Shown: positions 6,418-8,683, counted from the stretch's first letter. The stretch: DNA of 64,000 nt from Chloroflexota bacterium (GCA_964291655.2 OZ219802.1:1632001-1696000), one strand, 5' to 3'. Translations and numbers: made by a program. Notes: generated from the sequence alone by a model not told the origin.

Positions 6418-6643
6418 AACCGCCATAGCCAGGTAGCTGAAATGTAACGTGTTGATTTAGCCAGTCCTGGCTACGAGCACTTGATAGACATGTGTGCAGC
6501 GCCTAGCATGTCATTCAATGCCCTATCGCAGTTCTCTGTTGCGCTTGAATTCACGCTCTCGCGTAAGATTCGCGTGGCGAGCTACCCACTCTCCTAGGTT
6601 CATTCAAGACTCTCCACTTTATTGCCCAACCACTAATCAAGGT

Positions 6644-6683
6644 TCATCAAGACATTGCTTGATGACGTAGTGAGAGCTACAAT
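6644..6683 (+). promoter_or_regulatory. TA operon promoter with operator palindrome
   Basis: TTGCTT-17bp-TACAAT; perfect TCATCAAG-N6-CTTGATGA inverted repeat over the -35. Confidence 0.6.
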
Positions 6684-6706
6684 TGTGACTTAGGAGGGAA
6701 CCGACC

Positions 6707-6934
6707 ATGTCGACAAAAATGCAGAAATTCTCCAGCCAGGCTGACTCTGAGCTTCTGGCTGCTCTTCGCGCAATAGCCAAACAGGATGGGCGACACTTTC
6801 AAGCAATTCTGGAAGATGCCATGCGCGACTACATAGAAGCGCGCAGACATGACAAGCCCCGCACCGCTGTCATGGCGCACTTCCGGGCTAGCCTTGAAAA
6901 GAATCGCCGTCTAGGTGAGTTGCTGGCCAAGTGA
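6707..6934 (+). CDS. Ribbon-helix-helix type antitoxin
   Basis: 75 aa, KFSSQADSELLAALRAIAKQDGRHFQAILEDAMRDYI; overlaps the toxin start by 4 bp; SD AGGAGG. Confidence 0.8.
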   Translation: MSTKMQKFSSQADSELLAALRAIAKQDGRHFQAILEDAMRDYIEARRHDKPRTAVMAHFRASLEKNRRLGELLAK

Positions 6935-7320
6935 AGAGTGAGTTTCCAACGCCAGGGGAGGTCATCGCTATTCATGCTCAGTCAATACTGGAATTCGGCG
7001 GGATCCCCGGCATTCGCGACGAAGCTGCATTGGCATCGGCGCTCATGCGCCCACAACTGGGCTATTACACTGGCGTAGTTCAGGAGGCAGCAGCATTGAT
7101 GGAAAGTCTTGCAAACAATCACCCTTTCATTGACGGCAACAAACGCGCCGCCTTCTACGTAACCGACACTTTTCTTCGCATGAATGGATACTTCATTGAC
7201 TGCGAGGGAGAAGCTGCTTACAAGTACTTCATGGCGTTGTTTGAGGCAGGCTCGTTCCGTTACGCGGCTTTGGAGACATGGTTGAAGGAAAACGTCAAGG
7301 CTTTGCCCACGTTTCAATAA
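6931..7320 (+). CDS. doc: Doc (death-on-curing) family Fic-fold toxin
   Basis: GGIPGIRD, HPFIDGNKRAAF Doc-type motif. Confidence 0.9.
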   Translation: MKSEFPTPGEVIAIHAQSILEFGGIPGIRDEAALASALMRPQLGYYTGVVQEAAALMESLANNHPFIDGNKRAAFYVTDTFLRMNGYFIDCEGEAAYKYFMALFEAGSFRYAALETWLKENVKALPTFQ

Positions 7321-7375
7321 ACGGAAGCAAACCGCACTGCCCGTGGAAGCAATTCAGCAAGTACCCAGAGATAAC

Positions 7376-7415
7376 AAAAGGAGCGCCCGGTGCTCGTGCA
7401 CCGCAAGCGCTCCTT
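7376..7415 (-). terminator. Intrinsic terminator of the small minus-strand transcript
   Basis: Minus strand AGGAGCGC..CGGTGC-ACGA-GCACCG..GCGCTCCT-TTTG. Confidence 0.65.
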
Positions 7416-7445
7416 CAATATCCCTTAGGCCGCTCCGTGGTCTCG

Positions 7446-7493
7446 TTACCGAGACCTGACGGAGGCGGCCCTGGATTTACAACTTACATCCAT
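7446..7493 (-). CDS. Candidate 15-aa small ORF MDVSCKSRAASVRSR within a structured small transcript
   Basis: SD AGAAAGGAGGTGAT upstream; stop codon in the GTAA loop of hairpin 7428-7470; own promoter and terminator. Confidence 0.5.
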   Translation of the reverse strand: MDVSCKSRAASVRSR

Positions 7494-7521
7494 GGGCATC
7501 ACCTCCTTTCTCTTGTGAAAT

Positions 7522-7551
7522 ATCATACAATACCGGCGGGCGCGCTGTCTA
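7522..7551 (-). promoter_or_regulatory. sigma70-like promoter for the small transcript
   Basis: TAGACA-18bp-TATGAT on the minus strand, ~10 nt upstream of the SD. Confidence 0.5.
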
Positions 7552-7601
7552 GCTCGGAATGACAGTGTTTCTTCCCTCCTCACCCCGGCACTCGCCCCCA
7601 G

Positions 7602-7738
7602 GAGAACTTCGCGTTACTCCGTCATTCCGGCGCAAGCCGGAATCCAGGGCGCCTTTACACCTAGAGATAGCATGATTTCAAGTCATTTCACCCCCATCCC
7701 AACCTTCCCCCATAGGTAAAGGGTTATGCGAAGGTCTC
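7602..7738. mobile_element. Short family-B MITE with different internal content
   Basis: Ends GAGAACTTCGCGTTACTCC / GGGTTATGCGAAGGTCTC; direct repeat CCCAG on both sides. Confidence 0.6.
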
Positions 7739-7909
7739 CCCAGGAAGAAGGGAGGCCGTCTCACCGCGGCAGCACAGGTTGCGCGGTACTTTCCACGGAG
7801 AGCGCGTACATCTTGCCCACTTAGGGAAAGGTAGCGCGGGTCTCACCGGGCTAAGGTGGAGTAATCTACGCCTGCGGCGTGGGTCGCGCAGAAGACGCCG
7901 TGCAGCAGG

Positions 7910-8683
7910 CTAGAGTTGGCTCCTGTCCTCTATCAGGTCCGCGCTGTGCAGGAATGCCGTCAGCAGGTTGCGCATTTGCTCCCGGTAGTGGGGTTCGTAG
8001 CGGGTGAACTCCCGCAGGTGGCGGGCGGCTTCTTCATCTGGGTCGAATGCGCTTCCCATCAGCTTGTAGTCGCCAGCCAGTTCCCGGTTCCACGTCTGCA
8101 ACTCCTCCAACGTGAGTTGCGGCTCAAACTGGACTCCGTAAGACTTGCCGTACCGGAATGCCATGTTGATTCTGCGGTAGGACCCGTCGCGGCAGAGCAT
8201 GTTTCCTTCCGCCAGCCGGGTGGTGCCGTGGGGAATGGAGAAACACTCCCCGTGCAGGGTGGGCACCAGGGGGATGGTGAGCTTGCTGAAAACCGGATCG
8301 GCGTCACCGGCGGCCGTCACGTCGAGCTTGCGCAGCCCGAATTGATAGCCGCCCGTCGGCTCCACCGTGCCGCCGAGTGCCGTTGCCATGATCTGCGCCC
8401 CCAGGCAGATGCCCAGCACCGGCACATCCAGGGCCATGGCCCGGCGCAGAAATTCGCGCTCCTGGTGAATGGCGGGGTATGTGTCGTTGGCCGATTGGGG
8501 ACCACCCAGTGCCACTATCACGTCAACCTGCTCCAACGGGGGCGGCGCAAAGCGGTCGAAGGCGGGGGCTGACTCGAAGACGTTCAGGGGATCGAGGTGA
8601 AAGCCGTGCTGCTCCAGCACGCCGCTAAAGTTGGCGGCCAGGGTCTCCGGCGCGGCATGGCGGATGATCAGCGCTCGCTTCAT
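7910..8683 (-). CDS. Type 1 glutamine amidotransferase-like protein (atypical triad)
   Basis: ALGGPQSA, VLGICLGAQIMATALGG; GVQFEPQ in place of GVQFHPE. Confidence 0.85.
   Translation of the reverse strand: MKRALIIRHAAPETLAANFSGVLEQHGFHLDPLNVFESAPAFDRFAPPPLEQVDVIVALGGPQSANDTYPAIHQEREFLRRAMALDVPVLGICLGAQIMATALGGTVEPTGGYQFGLRKLDVTAAGDADPVFSKLTIPLVPTLHGECFSIPHGTTRLAEGNMLCRDGSYRRINMAFRYGKSYGVQFEPQLTLEELQTWNRELAGDYKLMGSAFDPDEEAARHLREFTRYEPHYREQMRNLLTAFLHSADLIEDRSQL

Follow-up and report, generated by a model that had tools for sequence, protein, structure and literature searches.

A conserved small gene with a 5'-terminal 14-nt Shine-Dalgarno sequence, apparently a reduced member of an undescribed family of mini-ORF RNAs in Chloroflexota

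A 64,000-nt stretch of the genome of a Chloroflexota bacterium (GCA_964291655.2, OZ219802.1:1632001-1696000), here called the window and the frame for all coordinates given without further label, holds on its minus strand, from 7551 down to 7373, a compact unit composed of a promoter, a Shine-Dalgarno (SD) sequence, a short open reading frame (ORF), two hairpins and a terminator. An earlier note, made by inspection of the sequence alone, had read a promoter, an SD, an ORF, a hairpin with the stop codon in its loop and a terminator from that strand, and had proposed a small gene, unannotated and self-contained, centred on ribosome binding. All of these parts were found again and the proposal stands: the element is conserved in 17 of 17 genomes of its genus and its SD matches the 16S rRNA of its own genome. 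Sequence comparison confirms a real, unannotated small gene under strong selection, and apparently makes it a local, reduced member of a large and undescribed '5'-terminal-SD mini-ORF' RNA family of Chloroflexota.

Transcription is predicted to start from a sigma-70-like promoter, matching the consensus at 10 of 12 positions, in which the -35 hexamer TAGACA (7546..7551) and the -10 hexamer TATGAT (7522..7527) are separated by 18 nt. It is the sole promoter-like site within 6500-8500 and, since shuffles of that region yield 0.9 +/- 1.1 such sites, the match by itself proves nothing. Across the 17 genus genomes the hexamers are kept as (G/T)AGACA and as TATG(A/C)T or TAGAAT, respectively, with a variable spacer. 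The predicted transcription start is the A at 7514, 8 nt past the -10 hexamer; an invariant CA (columns 3-4 of the genus alignment, A1) opens the conserved block. In relatives outside the genus the conserved block likewise begins 1-6 nt ahead of the SD-containing 15-mer discussed below.

Three nucleotides from the predicted 5' end lies a 14-nt SD, AGAAAGGAGGUGAU (7498..7511), which is invariant in all 17 genomes. Written as AGAAAGGAGGTGAT, it is exactly complementary to the 14 nt with which both 16S genes of the genome are predicted to end, in each case ...GGATCACCTCCTTTCT; the final two of these nucleotides fall outside the Rfam 16S model. The 14-mer AGAAAGGAGGTGAT occurs three times in the 3.47 Mb of the genome, namely in the element and as the antisense of the two 16S genes, and the 11-mer AAGGAGGTGAT is present four times. 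The element's SD is the strongest in the genome. Beyond the 14-mer, a comparison with 16S, the spacer and the following 3.5 kb or so found no rRNA pairing longer than 9 nt. The element itself is single copy in its own genome, and for that reason a repeat or mobile element was rejected as an explanation.

An ATG (7493-7491) placed 8 nt past the GGAGG of the SD opens a 15-codon ORF (7446..7493), MDVSCKSRAASVRSR, which ends at a TAA (7448-7446). The encoded peptide is hydrophilic, with five basic residues and without a hydrophobic stretch. Two hairpins are predicted to form over and around the ORF. Hairpin 1 (7472..7492) holds the start codon and consists of five pairs, UGGAU with AUCCA (7492-7488 with 7476-7472), closing an 11-nt loop; all five are invariant in the genus, and the hairpin is also present, with one extra pair, in a relative from the Caldilineaceae. 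Hairpin 2 (7428..7470), predicted from folds and the genus alignment, has 18 pairs and a CA bulge, with 99.7% of alignment cells paired. It carries CCUCC in its 5' strand, the stop codon in a GUAA loop and GGAG in its 3' strand. The GNRA loop of the earlier note did not prove to be conserved, the loop being GUAA in 15 of 17 genomes, CUAA in one (G002) and a UUA triloop in another (G012).

The unit closes with an intrinsic terminator (7373..7416), made up of a hairpin of 11+6 pairs (7416-7377) and a UUUUGUU tail. A simple terminator scan reported no terminators at the element, so that the call draws on the predicted folds and on a conservation that includes compensatory changes: all (100%) of the alignment cells of the terminator hairpin are paired, with one compensatory pair and six pairs changed on one side. 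The RNA as a whole folds at -74.2 kcal/mol (z = -6.15), none of 200 shuffles being as stable, and the minimum free energy fold leaves the SD unpaired.

The search for homologues suggested by the earlier note was carried out at the DNA level in 61 genomes, 44 of them from other genera. Each of the 16 other genus genomes has one full-length copy, of 85-98% identity; in the 44 from other genera, matches do not exceed about 39 nt. All 17 genomes keep the promoter hexamers, the transcript and the terminator, while neither flank of the unit can be aligned, a pattern that amounts to more than chance. An 88-nt core, from the SD through the end of hairpin 2, shows 0-5 differences from this genome; the 4-fold sites of the neighbouring, highly conserved M55 peptidase gene diverge by 22-31% in the eight genomes compared.

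The same alignment tells what kind of constraint is at work. Variable columns lie in loops or bulges, or else retain pairing, with 99.9% of 680 cells paired; hairpin 2 has one compensatory pair (U-A to C-G in G010) and wobble changes at two pairs. Within the ORF, by eye, there are four changes at codon position 2, three at position 3 and none at position 1, and the third positions of TCC, GCC, GCC, TCC and TCT are invariant across the 17 genomes. Sixteen of the 17 genomes keep the stop codon; in G012 it is lost through the loop indel, and the ORF would there extend into the terminator. At the level of sequence, the substitution pattern is that of an RNA-type constraint and not of a peptide constraint. 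On the earlier note's question of peptide or structure, it appears to be the structure that is conserved, with changes of RNA type, and the peptide does not look like the constrained feature.

These results bear directly on two dismissible readings. Over-long SDs and structured mRNAs are known in type I toxin mRNAs, but the peptide here is hydrophilic and basic, matches no Rfam type I family and is accompanied by no conserved antisense promoter, in line with the earlier note's view that it is not a type I membrane toxin. Conservation in all 17 genomes excludes a merely chance arrangement. We regard the probability of either, toxin mRNA or accident, as negligible.

Outside the genus, related units were sought in several ways. 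A covariance model built from the genus alignment (R1) and searched over 98 genomes of the class matched, besides the 16 genus copies, four full-length sequences with weak scores of 19-23 bits. Three of these four represent a sister family with a promoter, AGAAAGGAGGTGATGC (GAAAGGGGGTGATGC in G092), a 19-codon ORF whose ATG lies 9-11 nt past the GGAGG core, a long hairpin spanning the ORF's 3' portion, and a terminator. More broadly, 49 of 401 genomes drawn from across the phylum contain the 15-mer GAAAGGAGGTGATGC, compared with 1 of 401 for a reversed control. Among the sites inspected there are at least 19 self-contained units of the same kind outside the genus, from many families; the other 15-mer sites are start-less long 5' untranslated regions or ordinary strong SDs, for example that of rplJ. 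A unit from the Caldilineaceae (L173) can be aligned with the element across the 5' region and hairpin 1. A metagenome scan for forms between these two returned only two contigs, both known forms. Like the units of the wider family, the element has the 15-mer GAAAGGAGGUGAUGC near the RNA start, a start codon within 8-13 nt past GGAGG, an ORF of no more than 30 codons, a long hairpin and a terminator.

Two side observations belong with these surveys. At a set of start-less sites (L058-L066, L088, L104, L106 and L107) GAAAGGAGGTGATGC is not followed by a start codon of its own and lies about 90-130 nt ahead of the SD and start proper of the genes there, which encode lipoproteins or solute-binding proteins. 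To judge from their sequences, the start-less sites look like a phylum-wide 5' stabiliser of the STAB-SD type, a system considered below. In another genome (G036, L047:1501-1689, minus strand) a similar SD precedes a different small gene, a very basic 31-residue ORF (MAGGKKANKLRLRWRSKKANHGVKPNHGKSQ) followed by a terminator, whose product may be a small ribosome-associated protein.

A scan of 185,579 species genomes with a pattern comprising the 15-mer, a start codon and an internal GGAGGT gave at least 120 matching stretches, and the 80 loci with DNA among the matches listed are the base of all counts out of 80 that follow. They are mostly from Chloroflexota (Dehalococcoidia, Tepidiforma including T. 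flava YIM 72310, Thermoflexus and Caldilineaceae), with some from Oligoflexia- or Bdellovibrio-like metagenome-assembled genomes (MAGs). In 66/80 the ORF stops 8-11 nt past the internal GGAGG, the motif then being followed by CCUCC. GGAGGU is read as Glu-Val in 61 of the loci, with the stop 11 nt (54 loci) or 8 nt (7 loci) past GGAGG; five more use the other two frames (four the second, one the third) and stop 9-10 nt past it. The remaining 14 resemble chance hits or ordinary genes. The 61 loci encode 44 distinct peptides, with 10-19 codons ahead of the motif in the same frame, which means that insertions and deletions occur in frame while the peptide drifts. Such residues as are conserved coincide with conserved nucleotides, serine always being AGU and Glu-Val being GGAGGU. 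As far as sequence comparison can tell, this indicates that translation matters in the family and the peptide does not. A ribosome with the stop codon in its A site would have the internal SD 5-8 nt before its P-site codon, which is the geometry of an initiation complex.

What follows the units is also informative. A search with three biotin protein ligases confirmed by Pfam placed birA on the same strand in 48/80 listed loci, starting 160-480 nt past the 15-mer, directly behind the terminator and often without room for a promoter of its own. Other downstream genes, depending on lineage, encode what an N-terminal motif suggests to be a PIG-L-like deacetylase, a beta-helix protein or, in the Oligoflexia type, a homologous secreted protein. 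In two further families (L127, L132, L199, L117 and L118) the downstream gene has an N-terminus with an AHPDDAE motif and looks like a PIG-L/LmbE-type deacetylase, as judged by eye from the motif. As part of the best explanation developed below, and with the same roughly even chance of being right, the family would be a translated leader of birA in most lineages. We know of no RNA-level control of birA, and a literature search likewise turned up none.

Could the peptide itself be the product? The element would then be a micropeptide gene, the basic 15-residue MDVSCKSRAASVRSR being functional and the RNA structure merely tuning its synthesis. The perfect SD, the ideal 8-nt spacing to the ATG and the stop kept in 16 of 17 genomes would suit such a gene, as would the clearly maintained reading frame of the relatives, and leader peptides with functions of their own do exist, peTrpL reportedly being one. 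Yet five four-fold codons show no third-position change in the 17 genomes despite a neutral divergence of 22-31%, the changes follow RNA loops rather than codon positions, and one genome, G012, has lost the stop. Moreover, the peptides of other lineages share almost nothing beyond the nucleotide-fixed residues, and the differences in the sister-genus ORF are, by eye, nearly all non-synonymous. A micropeptide gene therefore seems to us unlikely.

The genus differs from most of the wider family in what surrounds the unit. Its gene order is conserved: aminotransferase and M55 peptidase genes flank the unit on one side, a glutamine amidotransferase gene flanks it on the other, and there is no downstream gene on the same strand. 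In the window the unit is instead convergent with a Doc gene, lying 56 nt from the Doc stop; a ribbon-helix-helix (RHH) gene and the Fic/Doc gene form a pair at 6707-7320 on the plus strand. Of the 17 genus genomes, 6 have the Fic/Doc gene (Pfam PF02661) next to the unit and 16 have the RHH gene (Phd-like, 75 amino acids, without a Pfam hit and of 60-97% amino-acid identity across the genus) convergent on it, so that most species have a solitary RHH gene. The link to the Doc toxin which the earlier note had thought possible thus falls away: with Doc adjacent in only 6 of 17 genomes the unit is independent of it, and a functional tie was rejected on this count and because the relatives sit before birA or other genes.

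A weaker form of the same idea would make the unit a cis element of the convergent RHH-Doc module, either as a shared bidirectional terminator or through regulated antisense read-through. The convergent arrangement itself, with RHH in 16 of 17 genomes and the Doc stop at 56 nt, speaks for it, as may one of two contigs from RNA libraries. These come from two metatranscriptome runs of one study (X1 and X2) and are low-depth (2.4x and 3.4x) contigs of a relative's version of the element: one, of 225 nt, spans 7375-7551 including the promoter region, and the other, of 432 nt, reaches to 7502 at one end and overshoots the terminator side by 303 nt at the other. Nevertheless, Doc is present in only 6 of 17, a terminator role leaves the conserved promoter, SD and ORF unexplained, relatives elsewhere lack toxin-antitoxin neighbours, and the terminator, with 17 pairs, is strong. 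We consider such a role very improbable.

Directly upstream of the unit, at 7599-7740, lies a member of a repeat family (core 7620-7650) with the palindromic core ...CATTCCGGCGCAAGCCGGAATC.... The genome holds about 25-27 copies of its ~140-nt form and about 83 of the core, one copy preceding the genome's own birA (L087:1100-1215). The repeat has an extremely high summed depth in all four sequencing runs compared.

Some relatives contain, besides the 5' SD, sequences that could compete with 16S rRNA for it. In 8 of 32 representative units an internal stretch of 9-14 nt is perfectly complementary to the 5' SD region of the same unit, a length reached by at most 1 of 200 shuffles; the complement in the Thermoflexus unit L144 measures 14 nt, and in some units the complement exceeds the 16S-like part. 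The consensus fold of seven Tepidiforma-type units (A2) pairs the 5' SD with CCUCCUCCU preceding the stop, in a MAFFT alignment that is poor in the middle region and misses the long hairpin. A further observation concerns seven units from the Oligoflexia- or Bdellovibrio-like MAGs (L139, L168, L170, L192, L197, L198 and L200). Here a 9-11-nt copy of the 16S 3' tail (CACCUCCUUUC) sits in the 5' strand and loop of the terminator, complementary to the unit's own 5' SD, and the units with it all precede the homologous secreted protein, of about 320-350 amino acids. In L197, the only informative fold among four RNAs of this type, a 30S-dependent terminator is predicted, forming in silico only with the 5' SD blocked.

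The element itself offers little of this. Its best internal complement is of 7 nt, a length reached by 19 of 200 shuffles, and competition between 5' SD and internal mimic was rejected as a universal family trait since it is significant in 8 of 32 units and not in the element. Folds constrained by a ribosome at the start or stop are predicted to leave the terminator intact in the element and the other 22 Chloroflexota units treated in this way; translation-dependent antitermination is not seen in these thermodynamic folds.

Such mimics suggest a second alternative, that of a 30S sensor or sponge: the RNA would bind 30S, and the contest between the 5' SD and internal 16S-tail mimics would set its fold, its termination and the level of free 30S. 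Extended to the whole family, this would make the units riboregulators with the ribosome as ligand, in which the perfect 5' SD competes with 16S-tail mimics, the second SD holds the terminating ribosome over the stop, and free 30S or translation capacity sets RNA fold, lifetime and read-through; the genus form would be a trans RNA reporting or buffering ribosome availability. The strongest SD of the genome, the 8 of 32 units with 9-14-nt complements, the Oligoflexia-type mimic in the terminator hairpin with the predicted behaviour of L197, and the Tepidiforma-type consensus fold all point in this direction. Against them stand the 24 of 32 units without a significant complement and the element itself, whose 7-nt complement is unremarkable, whose SD is free and whose terminator persists in every constrained fold. 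A single-copy small RNA (sRNA) would, besides, need extreme abundance to titrate ribosomes. We find the sensor or sponge doubtful for the element, so that the 30S sponge or stalling element put forward by the earlier note stays a minority view, and are equally hesitant about the riboregulator view of the family.

Comparison with known RNAs does not alter the picture of a new family. The Rfam search that the earlier note had named as a check on novelty found nothing at gathering score in the whole window, and at the element, with E up to 10, there are sub-threshold hits only, to CC2171 (13.7 bits) and, on the terminator, to mir-1270. The CC2171 family (RF01867) is superficially similar, its consensus starting ...GAAAGGAGGUGA and having a terminator at its end, and the element too carries GAAAGGAGGUGA near the RNA start. 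According to a preprint (bioRxiv 10.1101/2022.01.24.477521), CC2171 has been validated by Northern blot in Methylorubrum, its function being unknown. It is, however, an alphaproteobacterial sRNA, from another phylum, and membership was rejected at 13.7 bits (E 2-5) against a gathering score of 75. CC2171 is the only weak Rfam hit in several relatives, with scores of 28.7, 26.9 and 22.7 bits. In this genome the model scores the antisense of 16S 3' ends higher (18.5 bits) than the element, so these hits mirror the SD motif alone and the motif is not diagnostic.

Other candidates were disposed of similarly. SRP RNA lies elsewhere in the genome (C1:667978, 73.9 bits). 6S RNA has no Rfam hit anywhere in the genome, and the fold of the element is unlike its single long hairpin. 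An sRNA acting as a sponge of CsrA/RsmA was rejected as there is no CsrA (PF02599) in the genome, which is 97.55% complete. Separately, the unit of G200 (L097:531-629) has a sub-threshold hit to the Rfam threonine operon leader (Thr_leader; 41.6 bits versus 55) and, about 80 nt further on at the contig end (L097:711-747), there is a fragment of a group II intron domain (29.2 bits versus 32). In the literature searched, with coverage of subscription journals incomplete, the family was nowhere found described.

Four known systems offer closer parallels. In the STAB-SD of Bacillus thuringiensis cry3A an SD at the 5' end binds 30S and blocks RNase J (PMC4113751), and in the hbs mRNA of B. subtilis a strong SD gives 5' protection via initiating ribosomes (PMC5737220). 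The rnTrpL/peTrpL system of Sinorhizobium meliloti consists of a trpL leader RNA that acts in trans and a functional 14-residue leader peptide. Finally, the icaR mRNA of Staphylococcus aureus has near its 3' end an anti-SD-like motif that pairs with its own SD.

The element resembles STAB-SD and hbs in its exact 14-nt complement of 16S rRNA 3 nt from the predicted start, and RNase J is encoded in the genome (603 bits versus a cut-off of 400). STAB-SD does not direct initiation, however, whereas the sequence of the element has an ATG at 8 nt and a 15-codon ORF, which is maintained, and its predicted transcript ends after about 140 nt. With trpL attenuators it shares a short ORF, hairpins and a terminator, and its relatives lie upstream of the biosynthetic gene birA in 48/80 listed loci. 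It differs in that the ORF has no run of regulatory codons and that no downstream gene is left in the genus, and constrained folds of the 23 Chloroflexota units, the element included, predict no antiterminator alternative. The icaR arrangement resembles that of the Oligoflexia-type relatives; icaR is a full-length regulator mRNA, unlike the element, which lacks significant 5'-3' complementarity. The element is a member neither of the STAB-SD/hbs nor of the rnTrpL/peTrpL systems, nor of CC2171.

Taken together, the evidence leads us to favour, with something like half of our confidence, the view that this is a stand-alone small gene, a reduced member of the Chloroflexota mini-ORF family, encoding a ribosome-loaded, leader-derived sRNA that likely acts in trans. 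In mechanistic terms, a transcript starting about 3 nt ahead of a perfect 14-nt SD would allow 30S to dock at the extreme 5' end; the pairing potential is plain, and from it we infer binding. The ribosome would start at the ATG 8 nt on and translate about 15 codons, melting hairpin 1 and the CCUCC strand of hairpin 2. It would then terminate in the loop of hairpin 2, a step inferred for the genus and supported by frame conservation in the relatives. By analogy with STAB-SD and hbs, ribosome loading at the 5' end may shield the RNA from 5'-3' decay. The strong terminator would end transcription to leave an RNA of about 140 nt.

That the product most likely acts in trans follows from the lack of a same-strand downstream gene combined with purifying selection on nearly every base. 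Following the precedent of rnTrpL/peTrpL, the product would most likely be a trans RNA or a translated dual-function RNA of that type; a cis-leader role or a conserved-peptide role in the genus is unlikely. From the sequence comparisons, the genus unit is best read as a leader that lost its gene and is still strongly selected.

A simpler variant of action in trans would be a base-pairing sRNA, in which mRNAs would be bound by the CCUCC strand or the loops, SD and ORF having no role beyond stabilising the 5' end. C/U-rich, anti-SD-like seeds are common in sRNAs. Loop and linker sequences invariant without coding logic would accord with such a role, as would an independent gene without a cis target, and rnTrpL is reportedly a precedent for a leader-derived sRNA. 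On the other hand, CCUCC is locked in an 18-bp helix that a ribosome would first have to open, and no target was identified, a systematic target search not having been made. A 20-nt look-alike at C1:555818 was rejected as a trans target, having the same sense as its host gene. We therefore think pure base pairing improbable, to much the same degree as the micropeptide gene.

Several facts tell against a ribosome-loaded, leader-derived RNA acting in trans and should be set beside it. The element's homology to the family is traced through the 5' ~25 nt, hairpin 1 and the general architecture. It has no internal GGAGG 8-11 nt before the stop, the order being CCUCC, stop in the loop and then GGAG; nor has it a downstream birA, the genome's own birA lying 470 kb off with no unit before it. 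The frame conservation in relatives is partly inherited, since kin do not count as independent, and a start codon and GGAGGT were built into the scan pattern from the outset. Covariation is weak inside the genus: the compensatory changes proposed as a test by the earlier note do exist, at two pairs, both in G010, and an equal count is reached by 33 of 500 shuffles. The stop kept in 16 of 17 genomes and the ideal SD-ATG geometry leave room for a functional peptide. The RNA-library contigs, one including the promoter and the other running on for 303 nt, are compatible with DNA carry-over or read-through. No trans target, finally, has emerged, in work that did not include a systematic target search.

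Should this explanation be correct, a phylum-wide and so far unrecognised family of translated leaders and sRNAs, of at least 66 loci, would be built on the strongest possible ribosome-binding site. In many of its members it would constitute a conserved control or stability element ahead of birA. The family would also supply natural cases of an SD positioned to meet a terminating ribosome and, in the genus studied here, of a leader outliving the loss of its gene as an independent RNA. One of its members belongs to a cultured organism, Tepidiforma flava YIM 72310 (locus L181), which makes these ideas testable at the bench.

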